From contig OZ296649.1 of assembly GCA_965655095.1 (NCBI GenBank), forward strand, positions 128,960,001-129,024,000: DNA of 64,000 nt, read 5' to 3'. Below the pieces are notes generated by a model, which saw only the letters and a list, made by a program, of their open reading frames with translations, searched no databases and had not been told where the DNA came from. Shown here in pieces: positions 40,301-64,000 of this stretch (within the stretch, counting starts at the first letter, position 1; the number at the start of each line of letters is the position of its first letter). Position numbers and translations under genes: made by a program. The DNA comes from Haplodiscus bocki. Its lineage: Eukaryota.

Positions 40301-42846
40301 CCTGGAAAAAGATTCCTCAAAATTGAGCCATTTTTTTGTCGGAATCTACGGTTAACACCAAACAAATCTCTTTTTGACCATAATGCAGTGTATATGGTGA
40401 CACACCAATAGGCAGTTATTGACCGCAGACCAATCAAAACCGGTGAAAAGTATTGTTATAATCGATTCTGGGTGGAAAATGTTGGCTGGTAATACCCATG
40501 ACTGCATTGTCCCACACGAATTGATCCAATAACAGACAATGCATGAGACGTCCAAACGTTAGGGATGGCAGACCGAGTATGTTTGATAACGGCAGCTTCG
40601 GTGATGGGAGCTGACTTTGTGATTCTGAATGACTGTCGAACGATTGCGTCTCTGCAAAATCATTCCTCTATCAGTTTGATGTGTATGTTATGTTGTATAA
40701 ATGTAGTCAAAAAGACTGATCACATCGGAAACACAGCAGGGCACACTGAGAACAGTTTTCCAGAGTTCGGTGTGGAATTTTGCACTTTTCTCATAAACGT
40801 TCATTAGCCGATGTTTGGGAAATACCATGTTTGTGGACCGTTGCTTGTCACCCGTCAGTGTATCCCTTCTAGTTCCTGTTTCAGTTGCCAATTCGAGCGT
40901 TTATTAACTCAAACGATCATTCTTTTCCCCGAAGAAAAATGTTGTCAAAACGACGACGGTTTTGTCGCGGGTGTACTAAGTTATTGATTGTTTGCTATTG
41001 TTCTCGCTAGCTAATATTGCTGAGCGGCGTGTGCGGCCATATGTCTGCGTTATCGTGTAAGAAAGTCTCAAAAGCTTACACTGTTATTAGCTTTGTAAAT
41101 TTGCCTTGCTAAACCGCGCGAACAAATTTGCGTAAGTTCTACTAGCAAGGACTTGGTGAGCAAAGAAAGAGTATGAAATAAGAGATGAATTATTTGGTGA
41201 ATATACGGAAATGGCAGTCAACTTGTACAAAGTAAATGTGTACAAGATAAGATGAAATTTCCGATGGGTGAGAATATTAGGGGTGAAATTTGAGAAATCC
41301 AAATTAATAACTTTCAGTAGCCACCTTCTAAATTTTATAAAGCAACTTCTACAAATTCACAACCATTATAATATCAATTTTAACTGTAATATATCAATTT
41401 TGTATCACACGACTGTAATATAGAATAAGCAATTTTACCCGCGAAATCCAAAGAATTATTCTTCTATCCACTGTATATTTATTCCCTTGTATAATATTCG
41501 AAGATATCAAGAAATTTCCAACACAAAGATATCAACCAGAAAGTATCCAAAATTTTACAATATCCAAAATATTCGAAGAAAGAATTTATAATAGATTCGA
41601 AGTTTATCGCATGATAAATTCGAAGATAATAAATTCGAAGTTTAAGGCATCGCAGTTTTAATAAAGCATAATAAGTCAGATTTAACAATAAGTTTAGCTG
41701 AAATTTTTATTATTCAAATAAATGGAGTAAAACAGCAATTGACAATATTAAACTTACAAATCTTCCCAAAAATTATTGGAAATGTTTATCTTGAATAAGT
41801 TGAGGTAAGTTTTGGCAGTGCTTTTTATTTTTGGAGCTAGGACGAATGGTAACATTCGTTGTTTCTAGCTTGGCCTTTTTGCCCTTTTTGTTTTGTGTAG
41901 TTTTACGCTTATGTTGTATGTAAGTTTTAGCTAAGACTTCGGTAACATGCCATAAAGCAGTCAACCGAGTCAATTTTCTTAAGTTCCTCCTTTAGTCAAG
42001 TGTTGTCCACTGACGAGGCGCTTTCAAGTATTTCGCTTTTAGTTAGTAAGTTGTCTGTTTTAGCTTTTTGTCTACGACTATGGTAACGGGCATAGAGCAG
42101 TTAACCAAGTCAGGTTTCTTATGGTCCTCTTTTGGTCAAGTGTTAATCCACTGACGAGGCGCTTTCATGTATTTTCACTTTTAGTCTAACGACTCAGTAC
42201 TTGTTTAACATAGTAACTGGCCGAGAAATCTTAATCCCCTTTTCGTCCATACCGTGACATAGTCCTCGGATTTTGTTGGAGGGGTTTGAATTGTTTTAGC
42301 CTTTTAGATTTTATCTAAGACTCAGTGTTACTCGTGTCTACGGTTACTGAGCTGTTTTCTCTTATGTTCCCTTGTCTCAAACGCGGTAGTTTACTCGCGT
42401 AATTGTTGAGTGGGTTTATCTTTTACTTTTGCAATTTTCGAATAACCAGTAGTTTATTAACTGACTGGGTTTGGAGTGCAAAAATCTTCTAAGAATTTCT
42501 AGAGAGATTTACTCTGCTAGTAGATGAAACTAGAAACTCACGAATACCATCGTTGAAGTTGAGAAAGGGTGTTGATGTTCGGGTTCTCCAGGTCTTTGGT
42601 GGCTGTTCGAGTCTGTTAGAAGTTGCTCGCTAAGAAGCGGTAGGAAGTTAGAAGTTGAAGAGGAAGTCGAGAAGAGTTCCGCCTCGCGGATTTAAGCAGG
42701 TGAATTGTGGCAAGCGAATGAATACTATGGAAGTGCGCAGGGTATCTATACCCGGATGATTACGTGCCCTTTCAATTTTGGGCGAGAGCCAATAGGATCA
42801 TTCGACGAGCGAATCGAAAGCAGTTAAGTTGGCTCTGTATAATAGA

Positions 42847-43248
42847 AATTTAGCAAAGACAAGTTTAGGAGTTGTCTTAGAATAATTCTAGTTGAGTGGA
42901 TGGAGAGATTTGGCAAAGACAAGTTTAGGAATTGTCTTAGAATAATTCTAGTTGAGTGGATGAAGAGGTTTGGCAAAGACAAGTTTAGGAATTGTCTTAG
43001 AATAATTCTAGTTGAGTGGATGAAGAGATTTGGCAAAGACAAGTTTAGGAATTGTCTTAGAATAATTCTAGTTGAGTGGATGAAGAGATTTGGCAAAGAC
43101 AAGTTTAGGAATTGTCTTGGAATAATTCTAGTTGAGTGGATGAAGAGATTTGGCAAAGACAAGTTTAGGAATTGTCTTAGAATATTTCTAGTTGAGTGGA
43201 TGAAGAGATTTGGCAAAGACAAGTTTAGGAATTGTCTTAGAATAATTC
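42847..43248. repeat. 60-bp tandem array (~6.7 copies) in 3' LTR
   Basis: Same unit as 61500-61901. Confidence 0.95.
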
Positions 43249-43497
43249 AATGATGAGCATTTTAGTTTGAAATTAGGATGAGGGCGAAGAGAAAGAGAGT
43301 TTCGCCTCGGGGAAATAGGATAGTTAACTGAGGAGAGCGATTGAATAAAATGAGAATGTGCGGGGTATTTATACCCGGGTATGGCGCAATCGAGTGATCG
43401 TCCAATAGGAGAGCGCCTGAAGATAGCAATGTTTGCTTGGGAATCATTTGATCGGCGAGGAGAGGTGAGGAGTGGCGGTTGTTCAGAATTATTGAGG

Positions 43498-43682
43498 TTT
43501 TTGCGGCGAAGTCATGATTCGACTTTGAATATTTTCGCTGAAAGCGATTTTGCGGCTAAGTCAGAGTTTGACTTAGAATATTTTCGCTAATGAGCGTTTT
43601 GCGGCTAAGTCATAATTTGACTTAGAGTATTTTCGCTGAAAGCGAATTTGCGGCCAAGTCAGAATTTGACTTAGAATAATTT
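43498..43682. repeat. ~49-bp palindromic tandem repeat (~4 copies) in LTR (copy at ~62151-62335)
   Basis: Unit tttgcggctaagtcagaatttgacttagaatattttcgctgaaagcga, with internal inverted repeats ctaagtca/tgacttag and tcgct/agcga. Confidence 0.85.
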
Positions 43683-44426
43683 CGAAGATCAAGAAAGGCG
43701 AGAGAAGAGGAAGTTCAAAGTTTTTAAGAGTAGAGGCGAAGAGGAAAGAACAGAGCAAGTTGTTGACGGTAAGCGAGTGAGTGGATAAATGATCTCTTCG
43801 GTCGTGCCAAATGACTCTAAAATGGCATCATGCTGTTTTTTCATGCCACCAATAGGAAAACAGGGCATGATCGGCATGTCATACCTACTAGCCAATAGGC
43901 TGATAGTAGGATTTGGGCAAATTTGAAAATTTAATTTTTCTTCAATTTCGTCATCAATTTGTGCAATTCCACCCGAGTAATCTCATATCTCGCCCCTGTC
44001 GCCATAATAGCGGCAAATATTTAACCATAAACATAATCATCAGCTTTGTCGCCTCATAATCTGGTTTTCTGAGTTTTATCGTCTTGTATTTCCTGGGTCA
44101 CCAGGGTCTTTTATTTATTCGTAAATATCTGTGGCAACACCTCCGAAATTCCTGCTGGGTAAGTCAACTTTATTTCCTTCGTAATCTTAATTAGCTCGTA
44201 TTTCCTGTATAATTAACAAATATACAAACTGCACTGATAAATTTTGGTGTTTATCTGAAATCTGATAAATCTTGGGCTCGCCATTTTGGGCAAAAATCTC
44301 TCGAGGTTAGTTTCAACTTTTCTTTATTATAAAATCATAAAACTGCAATTTTTCATTAGGTTTAAGCGGTAGTCATAACGCGATAACTCACCCTGGTTAA
44401 AAGAGATGAAAAATGATTGGGGGGTT

Positions 44427-46400: not shown

Positions 46401-48566
46401 TTAAACGGGTGATACAGGAAGGGTAGAAAAACCCAATGCAGCGGAGTTAACCACTGGGTAAAGATGCTCTTCCTTCTTCTTAGCCTCCTCTCGCATCTCA
46501 TAGAGCTCTTTATCTACTCTAGGATCGGCGTTCTTAGATGCGCTAGATGCAAAACGATTTGCTTGTGGGTTATACATTGAAGTCATAACCGATGTCAAGA
46601 AAAAATTGTATGAAGCGCTCAGGAGGGTCTTACCAAACCCTAGTGAAGCACCGGTCATTCTGTTGATTTCCATGTGCCTTATTATCATAACAACCAGATC
46701 GATTATAAGCTTTAGGAATAGAAAGACTGAGAAATAGATTCCACAGTGTTCGAGAATATAAGCAACTGGTCCAAAGGTATCCATAAAACGATCCTTGAAA
46801 TATTCTGGGGATATCATCTTGTCAACATAGAACTCTGTTCTTGGAGTGTAAGAGTGGAATCCGTCAGGACCTTCGTGAGCATTGGAGTAGATAATTAGGT
46901 TCTGCGAAAACTTCTTTAAACCTGTTCTGGAAGCGGCGTTAATCAGGATGTTATCCCAGAATCCACGAAGTTCGCTTCTAGTGTACATGCCTGCATCTTG
47001 TGATCCAGTGAGGGATTGTGCAGTCATCGGTGTAACTTGTTTAGGTCCAAAGACAGCAGGTTTATCTTGATGTACTATTCCAGGCGTGAGTGTATACCAA
47101 GAATCCTCTTGATCCATGTCAAGTTGAAAGAGATTCTTGATTCTATCGGAACAATTCTGTGTAACGGCATCAGGATAAGTTTGTCTCGTAATTGGATCAA
47201 CAAATCGAATTTCACCTTCATACAGGATGGGTATTCTATCATAGCACTGATTCATCGTATGAAGTGGTGATTGAACCATTGGACAGTGGTAAAGCCAAGC
47301 AAGACTGCCATCTGTTTCCAAGAACATTGATCTATTTCCTGTGAGCATGTAGCCTGCTAACCGGGGATTTTCAAGAGCTAACATTAGGTTAGTGAGGATT
47401 TGGGTACGTTCTTGTTCACACTGGTTTTGTAGTAGCTGTATTTCGGTCGCTTGAAGGAGTCTTGAACTTTGGAAGAACAGATAGTCTATCTTCGTTCCAA
47501 GGTGCATCTCATAATCCATATTCAAATAACTGTCAGGTTTATCTTCTTGTTTGAACTGTGCTCCTTCCAGCTGAGGGTTATGCACGTAAAGTTGACCAAA
47601 ATCGTTTTTCTCTCGGGGTCCTAAATACTGAAGTATTTTAGTCGCACCGTTCTTCTCACGGCCAAGATTTCTTCCAGTATCCATATCGAAAGCTTCACTG
47701 AGTCGAGCCATATAGAGCGAGTCGTAGTTTGTTGGATAAATTGGCGTGGGTTTTCCGCAATGCTTTTGTGGGTTGTTCTTTACTTCAAACACAAACTTGG
47801 ACGTAGAGTCTTTTCCACTAAGGACATAGTTTTTTCTGTCTTGCTTAACCATGTTGACATCTTCTGTTCGAAGAATGGATAGTACACAATTGTCCGGGTA
47901 ATCCCAAATATAGGCATATGGGTCGAGTGAAGTTGTTTCGCAGCCAAGTTCTTCTAGAGCACAAGGTAGGATCAGTCCCATGTCGGATAACACTTTTCCG
48001 TTTTCTATCGTGACTTTTAAAGTTGTTTTTTTTTGCATGTGGATAATAAAGGTATCCCGAGAAATCCAACCTCTCGTTTTGCAATGATTTCTGTTTGATC
48101 CCGTTGGATCACCAGAAACTTTAACCACAGGAGTCTTGGTATCCCATTCGGCGCCAATCCAATGGCCTTGTAAGTTGATACTAGCTCCTTTTGCAAGTGT
48201 TCGGCAGTGTTCTGGTGAGATAATCAAATCACTTGTTATTCCGGCAATAGTGTGGTCAATACTGCTGTGGTCGTTATGTCCACAGTGCCACTTCTCGCGT
48301 TGATGTTGAATGCGGCATTTGGTTGCGTTTAACTCTTTTCGAAAATGTTTGGTGTAAAGTGTAATTGTGGCTTTGCTGACTTCTAATTCTTCAGGCGTGA
48401 TGTGACACGGCCGTACTTGATTTATGGCATAGAGTGAATTTTCTGTCATCGAGCTGCAGTCAAAGTGAGACACTTTAAGAGCTGGGGCAACCTGATCTGC
48501 GTCTGGAACTAAATGAAACGTCACCTCGGTATAAACCACGAGGATTTGAAAGAAGAATAGCTTCAT
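46401..48566 (-). CDS. env: Envelope glycoprotein (~721 aa), chuvirus-G/herpes-gB-like class III fusogen
   Basis: N-terminal signal peptide, HFDC...PC...KCRI...WHCG Cys pattern, N-glycosylation sequons, helical core (LLQNQCEQER) and a C-terminal TM segment (IYFSVFLFLKLIIDLVVMII). Located after pol. Confidence 0.85.
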   Translation of the reverse strand: MKLFFFQILVVYTEVTFHLVPDADQVAPALKVSHFDCSSMTENSLYAINQVRPCHITPEELEVSKATITLYTKHFRKELNATKCRIQHQREKWHCGHNDHSSIDHTIAGITSDLIISPEHCRTLAKGASINLQGHWIGAEWDTKTPVVKVSGDPTGSNRNHCKTRGWISRDTFIIHMQKKTTLKVTIENGKVLSDMGLILPCALEELGCETTSLDPYAYIWDYPDNCVLSILRTEDVNMVKQDRKNYVLSGKDSTSKFVFEVKNNPQKHCGKPTPIYPTNYDSLYMARLSEAFDMDTGRNLGREKNGATKILQYLGPREKNDFGQLYVHNPQLEGAQFKQEDKPDSYLNMDYEMHLGTKIDYLFFQSSRLLQATEIQLLQNQCEQERTQILTNLMLALENPRLAGYMLTGNRSMFLETDGSLAWLYHCPMVQSPLHTMNQCYDRIPILYEGEIRFVDPITRQTYPDAVTQNCSDRIKNLFQLDMDQEDSWYTLTPGIVHQDKPAVFGPKQVTPMTAQSLTGSQDAGMYTRSELRGFWDNILINAASRTGLKKFSQNLIIYSNAHEGPDGFHSYTPRTEFYVDKMISPEYFKDRFMDTFGPVAYILEHCGIYFSVFLFLKLIIDLVVMIIRHMEINRMTGASLGFGKTLLSASYNFFLTSVMTSMYNPQANRFASSASKNADPRVDKELYEMREEAKKKEEHLYPVVNSAALGFSTLPVSPV

Positions 48567-48760
48567 CACTGTTTAGCCAGTGGAGGTTTCTCTCTATTTT
48601 TTTCAGAGGAATAGCTATTAATTTACAACTACTAAAAAGGAAAAAGGAAGCCGTATTATATTTTACCGGCTACTTCGTAGGCACTAACACGAAGCGGTAG
48701 CACTATATTTAAAGAGTCGCTACACTACTCTATTAAAACGACGTCGAAATTTTTATAAAG

Positions 48761-49443: not shown

Positions 49444-49665
49444 TCAAGATTTTCCGTTCTGGCTTTTGATGTGATTCGGAGGAGGGTTCATGAGGATTGC
49501 TTCAATGAAAGGGTAATGAGTTGATCCGGGTGAACAGAGGAAAGTCTTTATTTGATCGTTGTTAGTAGATTGGGTTGTCACCATGAAATCTTTTGTTCCG
49601 GTGATGAATGTTAGGCCCACTATGCATTGAAGTTGATTATCAATTCGTAGCAATATTAGTGTCAT
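49444..49665 (-). CDS. Accessory ORF B, 73 aa
   Basis: Flanked by TAG-ATG and TGA-ATG junctions. Paralog of A. Confidence 0.7.
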   Translation of the reverse strand: MTLILLRIDNQLQCIVGLTFITGTKDFMVTTQSTNNDQIKTFLCSPGSTHYPFIEAILMNPPPNHIKSQNGKS

Positions 49666-49887
49666 CTAAATTATGTTTTCTTTGTTTCCACAAACGATAT
49701 CACTGCGTATGTAGATATCTGCTGACAGCAAACTACGCAAGTGGTAGTAGTTTGGGGAGTCAGAGTAACACTTATATTCTTCCTCTAATCCTGTTTCTGT
49801 TTCCGTATGGATAAGGATAGTCGTTGCGTCAGATTTAATTTCGATTGTTTTCACTTTCTTCAATTGTCCGTCAATTTTCACATACAT
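49666..49887 (-). CDS. Accessory ORF A, 73 aa (paralog of ORF B)
   Basis: Stop TAG is directly followed by the ORF B ATG. Shares IDxQL...CxxxSxxYxx[LI]xx[LI]L with B. Confidence 0.7.
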   Translation of the reverse strand: MYVKIDGQLKKVKTIEIKSDATTILIHTETETGLEEEYKCYSDSPNYYHLRSLLSADIYIRSDIVCGNKENII

Positions 49888-51516: not shown

Positions 51517-54500
51517 TTAGAGTTTATAACCGTGGCGTGTTTCAGTGCGTAGCAATGATTCAGCGTCAGGATGATCTGGCTGAGATCGATTGTATTTGGG
51601 TTCTTTGTTTTGATACTTCCGGGTATTATGGCGAATCAATCGCTCAATAGAATTGAGTGGCTGACTAGGCGGTATAGGAGAAGTTATTAACTGTGATGTA
51701 GAAGGGTTATTTATGGGTGTCCGAGGTGAATGACTGAGTGGCTGAGGCGGTATTGTAGGAGAAAGAGTTGGAGGTGAGTTAACACCAGAATCATCACTCG
51801 TATTACTGATTCTTTTTGGTGGGAGAACAGTTGGTGTTGAAGATAAAGGCACTATAGGGAAAGGAATTGAATCGCCTTTAGTGGTTTCTTTTGGGTTTTT
51901 CAACTGTTGTACCCGTCGTTCCATGAATCGTTCGTAGAAGTTATCTCTATGTGCATCTGAAGGGACATACTCCTCAATCATTGGAGGCAAAGATTCTTCT
52001 TTAGGATAGTACTCGACTAAATGGTTTCGATGGACTGTTTTGAGCATTGTAGGGTCTTTGTCGTCTTGGATCTGGTAAGTGGTGTTTGTAATCCGTTTTG
52101 TCACTGTGAAAGTTCCTAATCTGCGTTGTTGAAGTTTCTGACTTTTGGATAAATCCTGTCGATGATTTTCATACAAGACCTTCTGGCCCATGTCAAGGTG
52201 ATGTCCTAGTTTGGATCTGTTGCGATAGGCATGTGATTGTGCTGTCTGCTCACGGCGTCTCTCAAAGGTGGCAGAATAGATCCGTTTACAGTCTCGTTCT
52301 CGTTCCAAAAAGGTTTGAGAAAGCTGTGGTTTCAGAAGGTTATCTAGTAGTTGATTCTTCAAATTGTTTTCGCTATGCGAGTGTGAAGGTAGGTCCTTGC
52401 AAAACTCCGAACAACAGAGTTTATGTTTATTCCTGCAGAGACCAAGTTTTATTGACATTGGTATCTGTGGCTTTGTTCCAAAGACTATTTCGTAGGGGGT
52501 CTTTCCAGTGGTGTAGTTCACACTGGTGTTATGAGCAAAGGCAAATTTGGGTGCTAAGGAAGACCAATTAGTCCCAACATCATTCAAAAAATTTCGCCAA
52601 TACCGAGCGATGTGTTGGTTTTGCGTTTCTACTTTGCCATTTGTCCATGCTGTTCGTGGGCGTAAAGTGATTCCAAGTTCTTTTGCCCAGTTGATAAAAT
52701 CAGAGTTGATGAAGGCGGTGCCTCGATCGTGTATGATAGATTGAGGGATCCCAATGGAATGTATCCATTTTTCAACGGCGGCAATTGTGGCTTGAGCGCT
52801 GGTGTTGGTAACTGGATACACCATTAAGAAACGAGAGAAAGCATCAATCACTAGTAGGCAATGAAGATTGCGGTTGCTTGGCGGATGGAGTGGTCCCTTA
52901 TGATCGATGTGCACCGTACGGAAAGGTATGGCATCATTCTGCCATTCCTCTAAAGGAACTTCGTTCCTGTGTTTTGGTTTGGGTTTATTATTCTGACAAA
53001 TGATACAATCTGCCGTTAGAGCACAAATCCAATCGAACATCCCAGGCCAATAATAGAATCTTTTAGCATTGGCGTAGGTCTTAGAAGCTCCCATATGTCC
53101 ACCCATTTCATTGTAATGTCCTAGGCGAAAACAAGCGAGAAATAGTGATAGGGGAAGGCAAATTCTAAGATTCTCTTCGTCCAATTTGTCCGATGGTTCG
53201 TTATAACAAAGTAATTGTCCTTCAGTCTCAATGAGAAGCCTATCGAGTTCTTGACAATATCGTAAAAAGCCCTTCGATTGCTGAATTTTAGGTGATTTAG
53301 CATCAGGAGAGATTTGTTTGCGGACCCAAGAGCGTACAATTCCAAGGACAGGATCCTTGATTTGTTCGGCTAGAATAGTAGAGACGTCAAGATCTACACT
53401 TTTAGCAACTTCGTCAAGTTTTGCTATCAGAGCTTTTGTGTCCAAGTGAGGAGCTTCGGTAATAGTGAGTGGCTTTTTCGCTAATGAAGCGTCGATTTTA
53501 CCTAACACAGAATCGTGAGCTGTTTTTGCTTTACACAACCGATAGTGATCGACATTAGTGTCTACTCTGAAAATGTGGTCGTCTTCGTCCTCTTCCTTGT
53601 TATCTTCTATTTGATCAGTTGGTAAGGTAACTACGTTCGAAGCTCTGCATTCTTCTTCTTCAGTGTTTGAGGAGCTGATAGAGCTGTAAATTGAGTCAGA
53701 GTTTTCACGTAAAATTGGTGAATAGGATAGGGGGTAGCACAAGCGGCGGGATAGGTTAATAGTCTTGCCCATACGAAAACAGTCTGCAGCAGATTGGGCT
53801 AACAGAGTCGGGAATTCGTTGCTGATACTATTCAGTGTATAGTTCTCTCCGTCATTTTGCAATCTAAGGATCTTCTCATCATTTCCTTGTTGCCGATGTA
53901 TTGGGTAGAAGTCAATACAAGTGTCGTGTGGATTGTCCTCGTGTTGAATTTTGTAAATTACTGGGTTACCATGTTCGTCAAAAAACTCAATATCCTGGGG
54001 TATCTTTTTATGTTGTAATTGATGTTTTTGGTATCCTTCTAGGGTTACATTCCTGCTGAGAATATCAGGGAAAGCAAGGTTTGATCCGGGGGTCCAAATA
54101 ATTTTCAAATTCTGAAATTTTGTGATGATAACTTGATAGCGGAAAAATCGATGGGAAAGTTGTCCTTTGCGCCCCCATAAGTGCAGAATTGGTTTGTGGT
54201 CACAATAAAGATAGATCGGGAACGGAGAGCCAATAATGTAGTGTTCATAGGTTTGTAATGCAGAGACAATTCCACAAAGCTCTCTGTGAAGTGTGGACAT
54301 CTTTTGTTCAGCTTTATCGAAGACTCGAGAGTTAAAAGATATAACACGCTTTCCTTCCGGGAACTGCTGGATTAAAATACAGCCAGTACCAACATTAGAG
54401 CAGTCAACATGAATATGGAAAGGGTAATCCGCGGAAGGAACAGCAAGTATAGTGTCTTCACTGATTCTGTCTTTGATTGACTGAAAAAGTTTTTCGTGTT

Positions 54501-57056
54501 CATCTGTCCAGTGGAAGGATGTTGAGTCTTTAATCAAATCATAGAAGGGTTGACTGTCTACATGGAGATTTTTTATATAGCAACTGTAAAACCCGAGGCA
54601 ACCCAATACTTTCATCACATCAAGTTTGCATTCGGGAGATTTTAAGTTCTTTAAGTCTTTTACTCGTTTTGCAATCGGTTGTATTCCTTCTGGAGAAATG
54701 ACATGTCCAAGGAATTTCACTTTCTTTAAGAAGAAAAATGTCTTATCGGGAGCAGCCTTGAGACCAGCCTTGCGGAGGAGAGTATGGTATTCATTTATAA
54801 TAGTGAACATCTCGTTTTTATTTTGTGATTGCATGATCGTATCATCGATGTACGTTATGGCTTGTTTGTTCTTGATGAGAGGATCAAAATGAATTGTCAT
54901 CAGTCGGCTAAAGAAATTCGGGAGTCCGCATAGACCATAGAACCCTCGTGTGTATGTATATTGTCGTCCACCAAGGATAAAACTTGTAAGATTCTGGGTT
55001 TCGGGGCTCAAAGGCACTTGATGGTAGGCGCAAGACAGATCGCTCACAGAGAAGACTTTACCATTTACTCTCGTCATAATCATTTGTACGGGTTCCAGTG
55101 GCCAAGAATAGTTGGTGAGATCAGTTACTGAGTTGAGGTTCCGGGCATCGATGACGAGTTTAACGTAATCAGTTTTAGGCATCAAGATGATGGGGTTAAC
55201 AAAAAGTGATCCCATTTCGTCGTCGTCACCCATTTCTCGGATGATGTCTGCATCTTTAATTTGTGTTAAGAGTTTTTCCAGCTTTTCTTTCAAGTGTAAA
55301 GGTACTTTGCTGGGTCTTTGTCTCTTTAATTCTGCCTTGGGCTTCAGCGTTACATGGAACTTTTGACGTGTCTTGCCCACATCAAACTTGTGTCGAGAAT
55401 ATACGTCTTGTGAATCAAGTAGCATATCAATGAGGAGAGTCATTTCTTCATCAGTGACGTCAGAATACTGGAAATCGAATTCCTTGATATAATCCACAAG
55501 TTCTTTTGGTTGATATTGCAAGTAATGTTCAATAAGTCTGTTAGTGAGGTCTTTTCGCGTAATATAGGAAACTGTTCGTCACATGGAGGCTGACAAGATT
55601 TCGAATCTTTAGTGAAATCCGTCTCTAAATCTTTTTCATCGAGATAAAATTCTTCACTATATCGTTCTATTTCATCCTCTGCATAGAACTCAGGATCGCC
55701 TTCCGATGACATTGCATGAACACCGTGACTTTCCAGGGTGTATACCACAACATGGATGTCGGAATAAGCAAAAACATCACGCAATAGTTTCACCACCTCC
55801 TGCCAGTTCATTTGATCCAATCCGCAACCTATTTTCGGGATAGCGATTGTGGACACTCCGTGCATTGCTGCGTGAGACTTCATTGCCTCGAGAGTTGTAA
55901 AGAGAGTAGACATTTCCGGTTTGTCAAAAAACCGTTGTTTCGTCACGAGATTGTAAATATAGCGTCTGCTAGTAGAATCCCAAAAAGGGAACACTTGTCC
56001 GATCAAGAGTTTTGCTTTTTTACAGGTTGAACGAAGGCCAGGAATTTTATGGGAAAGGAAATCAGCGAATCCTTTACTCATTTTAGCATCAGCTGAGATG
56101 CAATGCCCGATTGAATTGGGTTGTTGAATAATCGAATTGTCATTTCCATACACAATCTGTAGGAACTCGTCGCCAGACTGTGCAGGGATTGTAGAATGCA
56201 AAAGGAAACAGTCGTTATAGCGTTCGTCTGTTGCAATGATGGCATTGGTTAAATCATAGGGACTCCGGATCTGATTTTTAGGTTCTTCTCGGTCCATTAC
56301 ATCGAGTGAAGAGAATCCAATTCTTCCTCTAGGAAGCGTGATTTGGTGGTTTTTGTTGTTTTCCATTAAGATAGGAAGATTTTTTTCAGATCGGGTACAT
56401 AACGTATTAACAAAGGATAAGCCAGTTGATACCGCCTGACGATTAGGTTGGAAAGTAGAGCCTGGTGGAAAATGGATTTGAGAGTCTTCGGGTGAATATT
56501 TGCAACAGCGGGCACTTTTGGCATCAATATACATTGTATAAGGTAGTCGAATGGTCAAGATCTGGGATAAGTGGGGATAGACTTTATTTTGATGAAAGCA
56601 ACCATAACAAAGTGAATTTGGAGGATTTTTTAGCTCTATTCCGGGCAGATCAAAATGGATTCCAGATACTTGTTTTTGGCAAAAGTCCATTCCAAGGAGG
56701 TTTTGCGTTTTCATTTCGGTTACCCAAACTGTTAAAGGAAACACGAACTGTCCATCTGGGTCGTAGCAGAAGGTTATACTTGCATAGCCAACCATAGGAA
56801 CTGTCTGTCCCGAATAAGTTTTAGTAAGTTTTGTACTTTTTTGTAATGTGATTGGGTGTTGCAGTTGGCAGATTTCCCAAAAAGTTCGATAAATGAATAT
56901 TGAGCAAGAGGCTCCTGTGTCTAACATAAACTCGATTTCCAAGCCACTATCTTTTTGCGTGTCTCCGGTGGCAAAGTAAAAGATATTGAAACTGAGTCTT
57001 AAGTTCCTAGATTTGTCTGAATTGGAATTCGGAGACCTTAGCAGTTTAACGGACAA
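51517..57056 (-). CDS. pol: Pol polyprotein: aspartic protease - macrodomain - RT - RNase H - integrase; one frameshift near 55553
   Basis: LDTGAS (protease), YIDD (RT), HVDCS/ELCG/CDHK (RNase H), HX6H..CX2C and IDHKGP..HDRG..KVE (integrase). ORFs 55440-57056 and 51517-55521 overlap in different frames around an A-run (GAAAAG). Confidence 0.93.
55735..56165 (-). other. TARG1/OARD1 (Poa1p-like) macrodomain within Pol
   Basis: SIGHCISADAKMSKGFA...RYIYNLVTKQRFFDKP...LEAMKSH...IAIPKIGCGLDQMNW...VVVYTL closely follows the OARD1 motif series. Confidence 0.9.
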
Positions 57057-58414
57057 AGTTCTGATAGTTCATTAATGCAATCATCAGTGGTGGTGAAACG
57101 AACCACGTTCGTTGATGTTTGATTGTTACTTTGCGGAAATTTCTGTTCGTAAGAAGAGGAACTAGTGATTGGGTTAGCATCTGATCTTCTAAATGGCGAA
57201 TTTCTAGGCTGAAAAGGCTGAGGTCGACGGAAAAAATTACCTTGAGAAAAGTCCCGTCTTTGTCCAGAGGGTGAACGAGAAAAATTTTCATTATTTCGCC
57301 AAGTTCCACTTTGACTATTGAAATTCCCATTATTCGATCGATTTCCATTGTTCCTATTAGGGAATTGGTCTGATCGCCGGTCCAATAATCTTCCACGGTT
57401 CTGGTTCTCCTGCCCATAATAGGAATTAGGTCGGTAAGAAGAGTTTTGATTGTTATTCCATTGTCCGGATCCATGGCTTGGTCCTCTTTTCTTATTATAA
57501 TCTTGGGTAAATGTAACTCTTTTTTCTGCAGTTCTTTCATTTTCGGTCTTTTTCAACTCTTCGTCTCGTATTTTCTTCCTGCACCAGCTGGGAGTGTGTC
57601 CATTCGTGCGGCAGTAATTACAAAATCGAGTAGCGTTTTGTCGTCCCTTTTGGTTTGGGTCCACGGGTTTGGAAGTGCCTTCCACAGCATTAACTCGATG
57701 TTCTTGCAGTTCAGTCCTTAGGTTTTTCATCTCTTGGCCCAATGAGGCCAGTTCGGCTTTAGTTTGTTCTTCATCATTTAAAAAATTCGAAGATACTTGA
57801 AAGGACACATCTTTTTGAATTATATGGGTTGAAAATTCATTCCAGGTGGCATTTTGGTGCTCCATTAGGTATTCTTGCGCTTTACGTTGAAGATATCCAG
57901 GTCTAAGTCCTCTCAGACTATAGTCCATGTATTGCTGTCTTCGTTGCCGGGCTTGGGCATCCCGTTCTGCATTTTGTTGAGCGCGGGCGATTCCGTTCAT
58001 ATCATCAGGCCAACCTTTGTCTACTGTCTTTTTGATTCTGTGAAGGAAATTACGAATTTCTTCTCCGTCTCTTCGAACACAGTGCTCTACTTCCAGTCGG
58101 TGGCGAAATTTGTTTCGTCCATCAGAGAATCGACTAATAAAGTTAGTTCGAATATCTTCCCATGGCGTAGCAGCTTCGATGGTGCTTCCATACCATTCGG
58201 CAGCGGGGCCTCTGAGTAGAGAGGAAAAAAGAGCTTTTTTGCGGAAATTGTAGTTGGCAAGGGCATCAGGGTTGGCAGGGGCATCTCCGAGAGCAAAGTT
58301 AATCTTTCGCTCTATGAGTTGTATGAAGGATTCAGCGTCTTGATCGGGGTCAGTTCCGGAAAATTTGTCTAGGGCTAGATCAGGGTAGGCTAGATGAGTT
58401 GCAGCGATAATCTT
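57038..58414 (-). CDS. gag: Gag (capsid + CCHC zinc knuckle); no ATG at the expected start
   Basis: The frame is open 138 codons upstream of the tracked ATG (KIIAATHLAYPDLALDKFSGTDPDQDAESFI...LRGPAAEWY...WEDIRTNFISRF), a typical retrotransposon gag N-terminus. Zinc knuckle CNYCRTNGHTPSWC. Confidence 0.9.
   Translation of the reverse strand, partial: KIIAATHLAYPDLALDKFSGTDPDQDAESFIQLIERKINFALGDAPANPDALANYNFRKKALFSSLLRGPAAEWYGSTIEAATPWEDIRTNFISRFSDGRNKFRHRLEVEHCVRRDGEEIRNFLHRIKKTVDKGWPDDMNGIARAQQNAERDAQARQRRQQYMDYSLRGLRPGYLQRKAQEYLMEHQNATWNEFSTHIIQKDVSFQVSSNFLNDEEQTKAELASLGQEMKNLRTELQEHRVNAVEGTSKPVDPNQKGRQNATRFCNYCRTNGHTPSWCRKKIRDEELKKTENERTAEKRVTFTQDYNKKRGPSHGSGQWNNNQNSSYRPNSYYGQENQNRGRLLDRRSDQFPNRNNGNRSNNGNFNSQSGTWRNNENFSRSPSGQRRDFSQGNFFRRPQPFQPRNSPFRRSDANPITSSSSYEQKFPQSNNQTSTNVVRFTTTDDCINELSELCPLNC
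57044..57050 (-). promoter_or_regulatory. Putative -1 ribosomal frameshift site G_UUA_AAC (gag-pol)
   Basis: CCG TTA AAC TGC TAA at the gag end; the -1 frame is the protease ORF. Downstream gtct...gaatt/aattc...agac can form a stem. Confidence 0.7.
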
Positions 58415-58765
58415 TTACTCAAACTTGAGATACAGATATTCTATCAATTCTTCCAAAATTCCAAGTTGAAAAGAATTTAAGTGGGGCTCAGGAAAATCTT
58501 CGTATTGATTAAGTGCGTCAGATAACGATTTAAGCAAGGGGTGATGGTCGTCTAGGTCTATCTGTTTCGAGAGATCTGAATTTCCTTCTGGATGTACTGT
58601 GACACGAATCCAGAAATCGTAATTGAATGTCCACTTCAAACAAGTGATTATCACCGTCAGGGTTTCGTCTTTGGATGATATGATCCAGGGGCAATTTAGT
58701 GGAACTTGTTTGCACTCGATTTCTGGTATTTTGTCCAATGGGGAATTGTCCAGTTTTTGTGGCAT
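58415..58765 (-). CDS. Leader ORF u6, 116-aa accessory protein of unknown function (paralog of ORF C)
   Basis: ORF track entry. Shares VxLxCxW...ITx[LI]xW...[IV]R[VI] and a C-terminal amphipathic helix with 49060-49443. In frame with gag across one TAA. Confidence 0.7.
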   Translation of the reverse strand: MPQKLDNSPLDKIPEIECKQVPLNCPWIISSKDETLTVIITCLKWTFNYDFWIRVTVHPEGNSDLSKQIDLDDHHPLLKSLSDALNQYEDFPEPHLNSFQLGILEELIEYLYLKFE

Positions 58766-58897
58766 CTAATTATTATTAGTCGATTCTCGTAAAATCTGAA
58801 CCAATTTAATGATAGCCAGTAAATAGTTTGGCGCCAAAAGTAGCAATAACGTAGCGAGAAGGAGGAAGTATAAGCTGAGTATATCGTCTTGTCTCAT
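58766..58897 (-). CDS. Leader ORF u5, 43-aa predicted membrane peptide (paralog of u2)
   Basis: MRQDDILSLYFLLLATLLLLLAPNYLLAIIKLVQILRESTNNN*. Stop TAG is immediately followed by the u6 ATG. Confidence 0.7.
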   Translation of the reverse strand: MRQDDILSLYFLLLATLLLLLAPNYLLAIIKLVQILRESTNNN

Positions 58898-58907
58898 CAA
58901 GATGAAG

Positions 58908-59072
58908 TTACGAAAACTGAATGGGTGGCAAAGTTTTAGGCAAGTTGAGGATGAACTGAAAAATAACGATTAAGTTCTGAAGGATGTACAATAGAACAAT
59001 GAGCTTCCGTGTTGGAGAGTACTCGTTCCAGTTCTCGACAAGATCGGGAAATATAATCAGAAAAAATAGCAT
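58908..59072 (-). CDS. Leader ORF u4, 54-aa hydrophobic peptide
   Basis: MLFFLIIFPDLVENWNEYSPTRKLIVLLYILQNLIVIFQFILNLPKTLPPIQFS*. ATG directly follows the u3 TAG. Confidence 0.6.
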   Translation of the reverse strand: MLFFLIIFPDLVENWNEYSPTRKLIVLLYILQNLIVIFQFILNLPKTLPPIQFS

Positions 59073-59207
59073 CTAGACGTCAAAGATCCTTCGACGATAA
59101 TAGGTGTGGAGAAGAGCGGGGCAACTAATGCACAGAAATGAGCCCAATTGTTGAAAAAGGAGAATGAGGGATGTCACAAAAACGATGAATATTAAGAAGA
59201 TCAGCAT
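59073..59207 (-). CDS. Leader ORF u3, 44-aa predicted membrane peptide
   Basis: MLIFLIFIVFVTSLILLFQQLGSFLCISCPALLHTYYRRRIFDV*. Flanked by TGA-ATG and TAG-ATG junctions. Confidence 0.65.
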   Translation of the reverse strand: MLIFLIFIVFVTSLILLFQQLGSFLCISCPALLHTYYRRRIFDV

Positions 59208-59339
59208 TCAGCTTTCCAATGTGTTATTGAAGACGATTCTGTGTAGTTCGATAACTGCCAAGAGGTAAGGAGGTATCAGGAAGAGAGTTATCACTGCTGT
59301 GATAAAGAAATAAAGCGTTATAATGAGTTCGTCTTTCAT
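59208..59339 (-). CDS. Leader ORF u2, 43-aa predicted membrane peptide (paralog of u5)
   Basis: Hand translation MKDELIITLYFFITAVITLFLIPPYLLAVIELHRIVFNNTLES*. Stop TGA is immediately followed by the u3 ATG. Confidence 0.7.
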   Translation of the reverse strand: MKDELIITLYFFITAVITLFLIPPYLLAVIELHRIVFNNTLES

Positions 59340-59536
59340 TCCGCAATTAATTCAACAACCAAGTTTTCACCAGTTGGGATTCTGCCTCGTCTTTTAGAGA
59401 TGAGTGTCAAAATCAAGCGAAGGAGGAATCCAATAGATATGCAATCTTTCAAAATTATCAGGCTGACTAAAAAGAAGAACAGAAGAAATGGAAAAATGTG
59501 GATCACTTTAGCAATAGCGTCAGATAATTTTTTCAT
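59336..59536 (-). CDS. Leader ORF u1, 66 aa, hydrophobic (uncertain)
   Basis: MKKLSDAIAKVIHIFPFLLFFFLVSLIILKD...ELIAE*. Its TGA overlaps the u2 ATG (ATGA). Part of the hydrophobic stretch coincides with a polypyrimidine/AG tract, so it may be spurious. Confidence 0.4.
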   Translation of the reverse strand: MKKLSDAIAKVIHIFPFLLFFFLVSLIILKDCISIGFLLRLILTLISKRRGRIPTGENLVVELIAE

Positions 59537-59596
59537 ATAAATATAGCTCCAACTAATATGCACCGTATAATCAAAAAAATTGCTCACACTTTGTGC

Positions 59597-59612
59597 CTCA
59601 CTGGTCGCACCA
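59597..59612 (-). promoter_or_regulatory. tRNA primer-binding site (TGGTGCGACCAGTGAG), possibly tRNA-Leu
   Basis: Starts with TGG 3 nt after the 5' LTR end, complementary to a tRNA 3' end ...CUCACUGGUCGCA-CCA. The isoacceptor identity is a guess. Confidence 0.75.
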
Positions 59613-61499
59613 GTTTGTCGCGGGTGTACTAAGTTATTGATTGTTTGCTATTGTTCTCGCTAGCTAATATTGCTGAGCGGCGTGTGCGGCCATATGTCTG
59701 CGTTATCGTGTAAGAAAGTCTCAAAAGCTTACACTGTTATTAGCTTTGTAAATTTGCCTTGCTAAACCGCGCGAACAAATTTGCGTAAGTTCTACTAGCA
59801 AGGACTTGGTGAGCAAAGAAAGAGTATGAAATAAGAGATGAATTATTTGGTGAATATACGGAAATGGCAGTCAACTTGTACAAAGTAAATATGTACAAGA
59901 TAAGATGAAATTTCCGATGGGTGAGAATATTAGGGGTGAAATTTGAGAAATCCAAATTAATAACTTTCAGTAGCCACCTTCTAAATTTTATAAAGCAACT
60001 TCTACAAATTCACAACCATTATAATATCAATTTTAACTGTAATATATCAATTTTGTATCACACGACTGTAATATAGAATAAGCAATTTTACCCGCGAAAT
60101 CCAAAGAATTATTCTTCTATCCACTGTATATTTATTCCCTTGTATAATATTCGAAGATATCAAGAAATTTCCAACACAAAGATATCAACCAGAAAGTATC
60201 CAAAATTTTACAATATCCAAAATATTCGAAGAAAGAATTTATAATAGATTCGAAGTTTATCGCATGATAAATTCGAAGATAATAAATTCGAAGTTTAAGG
60301 CATCGCAGTTTTAATAAAGCATAATAAGTCAGATTTAACAATAAGTTTAGCTGAAATTTTTATTATTCAAATAAATGGAGTAAAACAGCAATTGACAATA
60401 TTAAACTTACAAATCTTCCCAAAAATTATTGGAAATGTTTATCTTGAATAAGTTGAGGTAAGTTTTGGCAGTGCTTTTTATTTTTGGAGCTAGGACGAAT
60501 GGTAACATTCGTTGTTTCTAGCTTGGCCTTTTTGCCCTTTTTGTTTTGTGTAGTTTTACGCTTATGTTGTATGTAAGTTTTAGCTAAGACTTCGGTAACA
60601 TGCCATAAAGCAGTCAACCGAGTCAATTTTCTTAAGTTCCTCCTTTAGTCAAGTGTTGTCCACTGACGAGGCGCTTTCAAGTATTTCGCTTTTAGTTAGT
60701 AAGTTGTCTGTTTTAGCTTTTTGTCTACGACTATGGTAACGGGCATAGAGCAGTTAACCAAGTCAGGTTTCTTATGGTCCTCTTTTGGTCAAGTGTTAAT
60801 CCACTGACGAGGCGCTTTCATGTATTTTCACTTTTAGTCTAACGACTCAGTACTTGTTTAACATAGTAACTGGCCGAGAAATCTTAATCCCCTTTTCGTC
60901 CATACCGTGACATAGTCCTCGGATTTTGTTGGAGGGGTTTGAATTGTTTTAGCCTTTTAGATTTTATCTAAGACTCAGTGTTACTCGTGTCTACGGTTAC
61001 TGAGCTGTTTTCTCTTATGTTCCCTTGTCTCAAACGCGGTAGTTTACTCGCGTAATTGTTGAGTGGGTTTATCTTTTACTTTTGCAATTTTCGAATAACC
61101 AGTAGTTTATTAACTGACTGGGTTTGGAGTGCAAAAATCTTCTAAGAATTTCTAGAGAGATTTACTCTGCTAGTAGATGAAACTAGAAACTCACGAATAC
61201 CATCGTTGAAGTTGAGAAAGGGTGTTGATGTTCGGGTTCTCCAGGTCTTTGGTGGCTGTTCGAGTCTGTTAGAAGTTGCTCGCTAAGAAGCGGTAGGAAG
61301 TTAGAAGTTGAAGAGGAAGTCGAGAAGAGTTCCGCCTCGCGGATTTAAGCAGGTGAATTGTGGCAAGCGAATGAATACTATGGAAGTGCGCAGGGTATCT
61401 ATACCCGGATGATTACGTGCCCTTTCAATTTTGGGCGAGAGCCAATAGGATCATTCGACGAGCGAATCGAAAGCAGGTAAGTTGGCTCTGTATAATAGA

Positions 61500-61901
61500 A
61501 ATTTAGCAGAGACAAGTTTGGGAATTGTCTTGGAATAATTCTAGTTGAGTGGATGAAGAGGTTTGGCAAAGACAAGTTTAGGAATTGTCTTAGAATAATT
61601 CTATTTGAGTGGATGAAGAGGTTTGGCAAAGACAAGTTTAGGAATTGTCTTAGAATAATTCTAGTTGAGTGGATGAAGAGATTTGGCAAAGACAAGTTTA
61701 GGAATTGTCTTAGAATAATTCTAGTTGAGTGGATGAAGAGATTTGGCAAAGACAAGTTTAGGAATTGTCTTAGAATAATTCTAGTTGAGTGGATGAAGAG
61801 ATTTGGCAAAGACAAATTTAGGAATTGTCTTAGAATAATTCTAGTTGAGTGGATGAAGAGATTTGGCAAAGACAAGTTTAGGAATTGTCTTAGAATAATT
61901 C
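61500..61901. repeat. 60-bp tandem array (~6.7 copies) in 5' LTR
   Basis: Unit tttggcaaagacaagtttaggaattgtcttagaataattctagttgagtggatgaagaga repeats in phase with the 60-nt lines. Confidence 0.95.
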
Positions 61902-62018
61902 AATGATGAGCATTTTAGTTTGAAATTAGGATGAGGGCGAAGAGAAAGAGAGTTTTGCCTCGGGGAAATAGGATAGTTAACTGAGGAGAGCGATTGAATA
62001 AAATGAGAATGTGCGGGG

Positions 62019-62059
62019 TATTTATACCCGGGTATGGCGCAATCGAGTGATCGTCCAAT
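62019..62059 (-). promoter_or_regulatory. Candidate LTR promoter: TATAAATA box with inverted CCAAT box ~30 nt upstream (copy at 43366-43406)
   Basis: GGGTATAAATAC on the minus strand plus CCAATAGGA. A second similar module (TATAGATA + CCAATAGGA) lies at 61396-61446 / 42743-42793. Confidence 0.5.
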
Positions 62060-64000
62060 AGGAGAGCGCCTGAAGATAGCAATGTTTGCTTGGGAATCAT
62101 TTGATCGGCGAGGAGAGGTGAGGAGTGGCGGTTGTTCAGAATTATTGAGGTTTTTGCGGCTAAGTCATGATTCGACTTAGAATATTTTCGCTGAAAGCGA
62201 TTTTGCGGCTAAGTCAGAATTTGACTTAGAATATTTTCGCTAATGAGCGTTTTGCGGCTAAGTCATAATTTGACTTAGAGTATTTTCGCTGAAAGCGAAT
62301 TTGCGGCCAAGTCAGAATTTGACTTAGAATAATTTCGAAGATCAAGAAAGGCGAGAGAAGAGGAAGTTCAAAGTTTTTAAGAGTAGAGGCGAAGAGGAAA
62401 GAACAGAGCAAGTTGTTGACGGTAAGCGAGTGAGTGGATAAATGATCTCTTCGGTCGTGCCAAATGACTCTAAAATGGCATCATGCTGTTTTTTCATGCC
62501 ACCAATAGGAAAACAGGGCATGATCGGCATGTCATACCTACTAGCCAATAGGCTGATAGTAGGATTTGGGCAAATTTGAAAATTTAATTTTTCTTCAATT
62601 TCGTCATCAATTTGTGCAATTCCACCCGAGTAATCTCATATCTCGCCCCTGTCGCCATAATAGCGGCAAATATTTAACCATAAACATAATCATCAGCTTT
62701 GTCGCCTCATAATCTGGTTTTCTGAGTTTTATCGTCTTGTATTTCCTGGGTCACCAGGGTCTTTTATTTATTCGTAAATATCTGTGGCAACACCTCCGAA
62801 ATTCCTGCTGGGTAAGTCAACTTTATTTCCTTCGTAATCTTAATTAGCTCGTATTTCCTGTATAATTAACAAATATACAAACTGCACTGATAAATTTTGG
62901 TGTTTATCTGAAATCTGATAAATCTTGGGCTCGCCATTTTGGGCAAAAATCTCTCGAGGTTAGTTTCAACTTTTCTTTATTATAAAATCATAAAACTGCA
63001 ATTTTTCATTAGGTTTAAGCGGTAGTCATAACGCGATAGTTTTAACTTTTGCAGAAAGTGAGTACTTTGCAGAAGCCGTCATCATCGCAGAGGTTGAGCT
63101 GTTGAAAATCCTCCAACAAATTCAGACTTAAAAAACAAGAGAAAAAGATTGGGAATGTTCATATGTTTGTTGTAAACCTGGTTGACTAAGTTTCAGTTGA
63201 AAGCACATCCTGGAATATGGTTTGGTCAGTGTCTGAATGACCCCTCGGAATCTTATGCTGATTTTGAGCTACGAAGGAATCTGGACTTTCATGGCTGGAG
63301 CCAACGCAGGCCCTGATCCGAAATTTGTAGCAAGTTGTTGGGGATGGAAATAGTGAAAAGGAGAAATGACTCACTTTGTGAGTATTCAGACATCATCTTG
63401 CCTGCTGCAGAATGCAGTCATAGGCAGGTGCACTCCATTGATACATAGCAAACGAATGGTCCGAAATGCTTATCAGCAGAGAGAGGGTAGCGACTGTTGA
63501 TGCAGCCCGGAAAAGCGATGCAGCATGTGAAGTTCTTCCATTGTAGCAAGATTGTTCGTCCTGAATATGTAGTGTGATTGATGGTAAAAATGAAAAGAGG
63601 TCAAATGAGTTCATCTTGCTGTTTCCAGCAATTGATTGGCATGAAGGCCACGGTTGCCTAGCGTTTCTGACGAGCGATGGCAGCCTGCCCGTGTGGCCTA
63701 GACCAAATACTTTTCATTAAAGAACTCGCTCAGCACGTTGTTAGAACCCCTAAAAATAATGAGAACGACCAAGGACAAAATTTGCCAGCGAGCTAGGTCT
63801 ATTTGAGCTGAATCGGATGCCATTTATTTAGTTCAACACTACAACCACACTGCAATGAGTGCTGAAAAGTTTTTGTGTGACTGGGACGAGTTACCAGCAG
63901 TACGGTTGATTGTTACACGTACAACATATTGTTTGCAACCGAGAACGTCAAAAAAGACTCGGTGGCACTACTTGAAGAATGCAGTTGCTCATATTTTTCT

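Follow-up and report, generated by a model that had tools for sequence, protein, structure and literature searches.

Introduction

Small accessory ORFs ahead of gag have been described for the MDG1 group of Drosophila, in which sORF1 and sORF2 lie upstream of gag on the unspliced full-length RNA, are under purifying selection and include one transmembrane protein (main text of PMC11952523). The small transmembrane proteins are proposed there to fuse cells and pass capsids between them, and the main text of that paper makes no mention of leaky scanning, Kozak context or reinitiation (PMC11952523). On RTBV and badnavirus RNAs, ribosomes move past weak start codons through some 900 nt of coding sequence that lacks AUGs, as set out in part of PMC5902531. 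HIV-1 Vpu combines an N-terminal transmembrane helix with an amphipathic second helix and arises by leaky scanning, according to part of PMC8402909. Extra ORFs, some of them small and transmembrane, are also described for rotifer LTR elements in part of PMC5408684, and the env-carrying invertebrate Ty3/gypsy 'errantiviruses' are gag-pol-env LTR elements with many recent copies (main text of PMC13524379), where neither small ORFs upstream of gag nor a macro domain are mentioned.

Here we analysed a stretch of 64,000 nt from Haplodiscus bocki (the window; assembly GCA_965655095.1, contig OZ296649.1, forward strand, 128,960,001-129,024,000). It contains a gag-pol-env LTR element with many recent copies, like the errantiviruses, but with two small-ORF cassettes, a macro domain and a TRAF/MATH ORF in addition (compared with the main text of PMC13524379). 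The cassette before gag holds six ORFs, u1 to u6, of which u2 and u5 are referred to below as alpha and beta. As in MDG1, these are selected small ORFs before the gag of a Ty3/gypsy element, with predicted transmembrane members (main text of PMC11952523); unlike in MDG1, there are three to six ORFs and a duplicated transmembrane pair of 42-45 aa, which lacks a myristoylation site, an ectodomain and a polybasic patch, and env is also present. With RTBV and badnavirus ORFs I and II (part of PMC5902531) the cassette shares some 900-1,200 nt without internal AUGs and weak starts ahead of the capsid/RT gene, although those belong to plant pararetroviruses with two ORFs and ours to an animal LTR element with up to six, mostly hydrophobic ones, and we noticed no protein homology to them. 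With Vpu (part of PMC8402909) u2 and u5 share small size, a transmembrane followed by an amphipathic helix, an RNA predicted here to be leaky-scanned, and absence from sister lineages; Vpu, however, has 81 aa and a phosphorylated cytosolic helix and is encoded before env, whereas u2 and u5 are about half as long and precede gag. We found no account of this element group or of the alpha/beta family in the literature searched; the supplements of PMC13524379 and PMC11952523 could list the group.

Results

An env-bearing Ty3/gypsy element with a pre-gag cassette

The element lies on the reverse strand and has the following parts, in window coordinates.

40963-63038 (-): LTR element of ~22 kb, Ty3/gypsy with env, host of u1-u6
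59616..63038 (-): 5' LTR, ~3.4 kb, from LTR versus LTR comparison
59594..59611 (-): PBS-like sequence, TGG, 3 nt past the LTR end
58415..59611 (-): AUG-depleted leader and cassette, PBS to u6 stop, 1,197 nt, 6 AUGs
59336..59536 (-): u1, hydrophobic, carries a basic patch; 66 aa in the window, 61 aa in other copies
59208..59339 (-): u2 (alpha), 43 aa, start context G-3/A+4
59073..59207 (-): u3, hydrophobic ORF, 44 aa, two Cys, Arg cluster at the C-terminus
58908..59072 (-): u4, 54-aa hydrophobic ORF
58766..58897 (-): u5 (beta), 43 aa, start context pyrimidine-3/A+4, stop adjoining the u6 start
58415..58765 (-): u6, 116-aa soluble protein
57038..58414 (-): gag frame (Retrotrans_gag, Pfam E 7e-5)
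55440..57056 (-): aspartic protease and macro domain (Pfam scan; macro E 2e-4)
51517..55521 (-): pol, with reverse transcriptase, RNase H and integrase in Ty3/gypsy order (Pfam scan)
46401..48569 (-): env-like gene, Monjiviricetes fusion glycoprotein family PF24664 (E 2e-36)
40963..44385 (-): 3' LTR, from LTR versus LTR comparison

Read in the sense direction, the order is PBS, u1-u6, gag, protease with macro domain, RT-RH-IN, three small ORFs, the fusion glycoprotein and a broken TRAF/MATH-like ORF. With LTRs, target-site duplication, PBS, gag, then PR-RT-RH-IN and then a fusion glycoprotein all present, the host is an env-bearing Ty3/gypsy LTR retroelement. The window copy is young but damaged: its two LTRs differ at 16 of 3,425 nt, a 4-bp target-site duplication is present on both sides, and the head of gag is disrupted. 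The 25 nt of the LTR/PBS junction have 1,810 exact matches across the genome, and none of the named proteins nearest to the RT region is more than about 28% identical to it. The macro domain sits between protease and RT, and the PF24664 fusion proteins are class III, gB-like.

Several further features of the region were recorded. The LTR contains tandem arrays of 60-nt and 49-nt units (61497-61906 and 62143-62337; again at 42844-43253 and 43490-43684); the 60-nt array has open frames on both strands and is flanked by TATA-like boxes at about 62026 and 61405. Downstream of env, at 44427-45752 (-), the TRAF/MATH-like ORF encodes a coiled coil and is frameshifted in the window copy; it also occurs in other lineages, as three tandem copies in locus L172, and is a candidate innate-immune signalling decoy. 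A second small-ORF cassette occupies the pol-env interval (49060-49887, -), with three ORFs of 73, 73 and 127 aa, stop-to-start joins and a pyrimidine at -3, and is conserved in lineages B, C and E (lineages are defined below). Outside the element, LINE fragments (endonuclease, RT) lie at 27143-30716 (+), together with an upstream ORF that has weak chromo/Tudor-like matches, and direct repeats of about 2.1 kb at 15015-18758 and 20625-22731, with an inverted copy close by, are possibly the termini of another transposon.

Within the pre-gag cassette, the overlap of u1 with u2 is specific to the window copy, since u1 is longer there than in the 29 other copies compared. In u3 two cysteines are followed by a Tyr-Tyr-Arg-Arg-Arg cluster, and in u1 a basic patch follows a long hydrophobic run; such juxtamembrane basic clusters are absent from u2 and u5, and neither u1 nor u3 has Gly2.

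The last gene, u6, belongs to a family of 113-120 aa, single-copy in lineages A, C and D but present as three paralogs in B and E; purifying selection acts on all of them, with omega 0.11-0.26 in A-D. The model of u6 predicts a fold of four strands plus helices (pLDDT 85), for which Foldseek returned no match at E <= 0.001 in PDB or BFVD, while the best VIA Z of 4.3 (PH-like folds) is too weak for use and the best Atlas score was 0.76. In the 50% library, 123 representatives matched at E <= 0.001, a few of them spurious long proteins; the distant relatives P0208 and P0222 were not found in the genome at E <= 1e-40 among 150 scored candidates. Judged on these searches, u6 is a new family. Its loci include L031-L036, L122, L136 and L161:9111-9512, and a homolog lies between pol and env in lineage F. 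By way of this homolog the third ORF of the pol-env cassette may be a distant u6 relative, the direct comparison being weak (hhalign probability 7% for u6 against the ORF at 49060-49443).

Paralogy of u2 and u5

The sequence-only reading had proposed that u2 and u5 are duplicated micropeptides of equal length whose protein pattern was kept while the nucleotides diverged. The two proteins do align without gaps, with 17 of 43 residues identical, and share LYF, A15, LxLxP and YLLA[VI]IxL. Both have 43 aa in the window, but equal length is not universal, as the lineage E proteins measure 45 and 42 aa. The ungapped BLOSUM62 score of 82 was reached by none of 20,000 full shuffles and by none of 20,000 shuffles that kept the hydrophobic/polar pattern (mean 23.6, sd 10.7), so that the similarity exceeds that of shuffled hydrophobic sequences; 17 identities were reached by one of 20,000 pattern-keeping shuffles. 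Among the 15 pairs of cassette ORFs, u2-u5 was the sole significant one (0/3,000 shuffles), followed by u3-u5 (99/3,000), and the same test detected no relation of u3 or u4 to u2 or u5.

At the nucleotide level the two genes have indeed drifted far apart, with identity at 54 of 132 positions (17/44, 29/44 and 8/44 at the three codon positions) and different codons at 15 of the 16 identical non-Met residues. The codon-aware comparison gave a saturated pS of 1.01 against a pN of 0.47, and blastn found no meaningful match between u2 and u5 (best E 0.18). Comparison of the alpha and beta profiles gave a probability of 98.7 (E 1.7e-16), and alpha and beta formed separate clades across lineages (support 96/98; 95% of bootstrap trees) in a tree of 28 proteins and 38 columns, from which one alpha row was omitted as possibly offset. 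The alpha signature is usually T22-P-[PT] with an acidic or mixed stretch at 31-34, whereas beta has [GA]22-P-[NG] and, in nearly all copies, Gln34. By these sequence criteria alpha and beta are distinct, diverged types and not interchangeable copies. The clades, the profile comparison and the shuffles together bear out a duplication, and u2 and u5 are almost certainly real, selected paralogs.

As for the proposal that the duplication took place within the cassette, the directly tandem alpha and beta of lineage E fit a local event, but the event is older than the window element family, having happened before lineages A, D and E separated. The pair may also stem from recombination that joined two lineages with one gene each, though no beta-only copy was present among the cassettes screened. 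Homology among u1, u3, u4, the first ORFs of lineages B-E and alpha/beta was mostly non-significant in class-preserving shuffles of 91 pairs. The first ORFs of lineages B and E are clear orthologs, and the best of the other pairs were the first ORF of D with beta of D (3/1,000 shuffles), the first ORFs of D and C (7/1,000) and the first ORF of C with alpha of D (19/1,000). These similarities of the D and C first ORFs to alpha and beta being too weak among 91 pairs, the idea of a duplicated two-gene module was dropped.

Distribution and age of the pair

Related elements were collected as an unranked sample of diverged u6 proteins and 90 of the first 100 PBS matches listed. They sort into seven lineages, as follows, with counts out of these 90 matches.

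Lineage A (window type): 4/90; u1-alpha-u3-u4-beta-u6
Lineage B: 17/90 as first sorted; like E without the pair, three u6 paralogs
Lineage C: 30/90; 38-aa ORF, alpha, u6
Lineage D: 8/90; 61-aa ORF, alpha, beta, u6
Lineage E: 3/90, plus one degenerate copy first sorted with B; 72-aa ORF, alpha, beta, three u6 paralogs
Lineage F: 2/90; no cassette
Lineage G: 15/90; no cassette

The remaining 11 of the 90 matches listed were gag-derived or unrelated. Both paralogs thus occur in A, D and E, alpha alone in C, and neither in B, F and G. In lineage E alpha and beta are directly tandem with a 4-nt overlap (AUGA), and beta stood right behind alpha in all 23 further E copies, which had been picked by alpha similarity. 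The gag tree, rooted on lineage F, reads ((B,E),(D,(A,(C,G)))), with support of 84-94 for its inner forks and B and E intermixed. Since the pair is found on both sides of the first split of this tree, the duplication is old. The history that these sequences suggest most simply is a pair already in place before the lineages diverged, followed by loss of beta in C and of both genes in B and G, although exchange of sequence between lineages by recombination could obscure it.

Among the copies examined, env was present in lineage B (1 of 2 full-length, 1 truncated), in one of two F copies and in both C copies; none was found within 20 kb in two D copies, and 20 kb scanned around three G copies contained neither pol nor env of this family. 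The env-bearing B and F copies without either gene show that the pair is dispensable; lineages can bear env without it, and it does not take the place of env. Lineage G (L054, L098, L101 and 12 more) is abundant and consists of a leader of about 100 nt and gag only, and a second gag-derived group (L046-type, 7 copies) has a hydrophobic N-terminus. Both groups are probably non-autonomous derivatives.

Outside these elements, Pfam gave nothing better than E 0.16 for u2, u5 or 29 aligned relatives, and PDB sequences gave a single match at E 3.8. The alpha/beta profile retrieved 21 matches among 222 candidates from the protein database, all of them ENA entries that can be recognised as alpha or beta from the lineages described here. 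Across Pfam, PDB, the protein database and ESM Atlas no homolog was identified beyond these elements, and the family was found solely in this genome and in ENA contigs.

Selection on the small ORFs

Evidence that such tiny ORFs are selected, as had been suggested, came from variants among copies, which were sorted into singletons, mostly products of decay after insertion, and variants shared by copies, which had passed through active lineages. In 47 lineage A copies, shared variants gave an omega of 0.13 for u2 (29 synonymous, 12 non-synonymous) and 0.16 for u5 (30/14), against singleton values of 1.40 and 0.87; gag showed 0.08 and 1.15, respectively. Shared variants in the other ORFs of lineage A gave 0.51 for u1, 0.34 for u3, 0.38 for u4 and 0.25 for u6. 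Alpha of lineage C had an omega of 0.19 (36/18, shared variants), alpha and beta of lineage D 0.22 and 0.15 (shared variants), and alpha and beta of lineage E 0.24 and 0.32 (variants in at least 3 of 23 copies). These omegas come from plain allele counting and not from a fitted codon model, and the lineage A and E copies were chosen by similarity, which favours intact ones. Among the 29 closest other copies the 43-codon frame was open in 29 for u2 and in 28 for u5.

The reading of the ORFs as regulatory uORFs, or as hydrophobic filler encoding functionless peptides, can draw on the existence of whole lineages without them and on the hydrophobic frames that T-rich sequence yields, but it is barely credible and largely refuted by the shuffles, the clades and omega, given residues conserved in four lineages despite saturated synonymous sites and omega values of 0.13-0.32.

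Predicted translation of the cassette

All six AUGs of the 1,197-nt leader and cassette are ORF starts, where dinucleotide shuffles predict 20.5 +- 3.3 (0/500 as low). There is no internal Met in the 360 codons of the cassette ORFs, and one out-of-frame AUG against 6.9 expected under synonymous shuffling (P 0.001). Lineages B and E share this depletion, which is less marked in C and D (for example, 22/500 shuffles as low for C L037, 44/500 for D L140). As for start contexts, the majority base at -3 of 23 cassette starts in five lineages was a pyrimidine in 18, G in 5 and A in none, and none of the 23 had G as the majority base at +4, a position that is partly set by the second residue; orthologs and paralogs in this set are non-independent. 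The gag start, by contrast, was A-3/G+4 in all seven lineages (majority in A-E, copies examined in F and G). The host H3 and H2B starts, a control of two genes, were G-3/G+4. AUG depletion combined with weak cassette starts and a strong gag start points to leaky scanning, by which the cassette is probably read. Scanning ribosomes would pass the six weak or moderate AUGs with few initiating at each, and most would go on to the gag AUG with its strong context, so that accessory proteins would be scarce and Gag abundant; u2 and u5 are accordingly expected, by start context, as likely low-level products of the full-length RNA. In the 5' LTR there are 36 AUGs in the sense direction, and 19 of these follow the first candidate TATA box (62026). 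Simple scanning would thus require transcription to begin near the 3' end of the LTR, a spliced leader or shunting.

The genes could also be real but expressed in other ways, by termination-reinitiation where a stop meets the next start or from individually spliced mRNAs. The stops of u2, u3 and u5 adjoin the AUGs of u3, u4 and u6 in nearly all of 30 copies, lineage E has its AUGA overlap of alpha and beta, and stop-start overlaps mark viral reinitiation (part of PMC10275272). However, a stop-like triplet also stands before AUGs that no ORF end precedes (the first ORF of lineage C, and u6 of C, with a gap of 50 nt), so the triplet may merely supply the U at -3, and gaps between ORFs range from -4 to about 60 nt across lineages. 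Reinitiation of the TURBS type is independent of Kozak context (part of PMC10275272) and would not by itself predict the contrast between weak cassette and strong gag starts. An AG lies within 15 nt of 13 of the 29 starts with no common acceptor pattern, which speaks against splicing. Four sequencing runs that were compared behaved like genomic DNA, and among the joints listed none had splice-type ends, which weighs for neither reading. The core motif of TURBS, complementary to 18S rRNA, is UGGGA, and it was found 25-100 nt upstream at 3 of 29 junctions and at none of the 12 in lineage A. We therefore regard reinitiation or splicing as rather unlikely in comparison with leaky scanning. Read-through into a polyprotein was rejected: the identity of the stops differs between copies, the base after abutting stops is A and not C, and the frames differ between lineages.

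Predicted protein features

Both proteins begin with four polar residues, followed by a hydrophobic run from residue 5 to about 22-30, Pro23 and an amphipathic stretch at 28-38 with a hydrophobic moment of 0.42-0.61. The Kyte-Doolittle maxima over 19 residues are 2.5 for u2 and 2.4 for u5, and u2 and u5 are predicted to be single-pass membrane helices. AlphaFold2 modelled alpha as one helix (pLDDT 89), a result informative on little beyond helicity. The small residues 8, 15, 18 and 22 of alpha fall on one helix face (P 0.007, post hoc; P 0.18 for beta), and identity between lineages followed no helical face (P 0.37-0.69).

An N-x-S/T sequon occurs in the alpha tail in 45/48 copies of lineage A, 28/29 of C, 15/19 of E and 0/6 of D, against tail-shuffle rates of 0.17, 0.25, 0.42 and 0.04, respectively. 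Overall, 88 of 102 copies have it at 38-40, where the middle residue varies, and it reads N-x-T in u2 itself; beta has no sequon in any of 64 copies. This hints at a luminal, glycosylated alpha tail, although the site is near the C-terminus, D has none and the charge bias is inconsistent. Flanking charges that are inconsistent across lineages speak against opposite topologies of alpha and beta, an idea retained solely in the boldest reading below.

Discussion

We judge the core finding to be real: two old paralogs, both selected, within a modular accessory cassette whose sequence offers good evidence for leaky scanning. Taken as a whole, the account of an old, selected pair of 43-codon genes that are read by leaky scanning and encode membrane helices acting as Vpu-like accessory adaptors is plausible, a little short of probable; its last part, the adaptor function, is argued by analogy and is tentative. 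The N-terminal helix, which spans residues 5 to about 27 and includes Pro23, would insert each protein into the membrane, with the amphipathic tail behind it, and as adaptors alpha and beta would bind other membrane proteins through one helix face, as Vpu does. A division of labour between alpha and beta, as two subunits or on different partners, is suggested by the separate signature that each keeps in three lineages. As some env-bearing lineages lack both genes, the role would be to tune or counter the host and not replication itself. Vpu could serve as the nearest working model in architecture, expression route and patchy distribution, with no homology implied: neither Pfam nor PDB gave a Vpu match at useful E-values, and no ligase-recruiting phospho-serine motif is evident in the tail of about 15 residues in u2 and u5, which is much shorter than that of Vpu. 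Alanines 10, 14 and 18 of Vpu are reportedly named in the title of one Vpu study.

Alternatively, alpha alone or alpha with beta might oligomerise into a small ion-leak channel that aids budding or release of particles. Class I viroporins are small proteins with a single hydrophobic helix, and u2 and u5 fit in size and layout, with 42-45 aa, one such helix, a proline and an amphipathic tail; residues 8, 15, 18 and 22, small or hydroxylated, could line a pore, and the lack of beta-only copies among the cassettes screened is as expected of a dependent subunit. We nevertheless consider a viroporin unlikely, since positions 5-22 hold no conserved charged or amide residue, there is no basic cluster (at most 2-3 K/R per 6 residues), and env-bearing lineages do without either gene.

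A fusogen like the FAST proteins or sORF2, which would fuse cells and pass capsids between them, is suggested by the position of small transmembrane ORFs upstream of gag in a Ty3/gypsy element with the same evolutionary signature as in MDG1 (main text of PMC11952523). It is very unlikely here: Gly2 occurs in none of 166 full-length alpha or beta copies (one longer E beta copy has it), no polybasic patch follows the helix (at most 2-3 K/R per 6 residues; mean tail charge -1.0 to +1.2), hydrophobicity from residue 5 leaves no ectodomain, the length is 42-45 aa against 63-107 aa, and the element has its own env. By these features u2 and u5 are not members of the FAST/MDG1 sORF2 class.

The notion of receptor decoys, in which the peptides would mimic or descend from the final transmembrane helix plus amphipathic helix 8 of a 7-TM receptor of the host, arose from the first ESM Atlas matches of u2. 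These were fragments of nematode Srd/Srh chemoreceptors (score 0.92 with 163 shared features; 14-22% of members carry the family), and the helix-Pro-Tyr-amphipathic layout of u2 and u5 is one that we take to resemble the junction of last helix and helix 8. We judge it most improbable, as 163 shared features fall below the 170 of the tool guide, shuffled proteins reach 0.9 in 4-10% of cases, and no Pfam chemoreceptor family matched any of 29 members at E <= 1.

A bolder version of the adaptor reading, which we rate as quite improbable, is that the retroelement runs a virus-style accessory operon of up to six leaky-scanned genes, with modules gained, lost and duplicated, in which alpha would be a glycosylated, C-out helix. 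Beta would associate with alpha, perhaps inserted the other way round, and together they would inactivate a restriction factor in host membranes. The two would then be a heteromeric membrane micropeptide of a new class.

Accessory genes, a hallmark of complex retroviruses, have been little explored in the Ty3/gypsy elements of invertebrates. As main precedent we found the two MDG1 sORFs, and the element group described here shows a larger, modular set with an old duplication of which both copies are selected. A leaky-scanning signature running through more than 1 kb of coding sequence is one that we found described for plant pararetroviruses only. As natural variants with both genes, one or none exist in many copies, the role of a small membrane accessory protein, and the host factor that it would meet, become testable.
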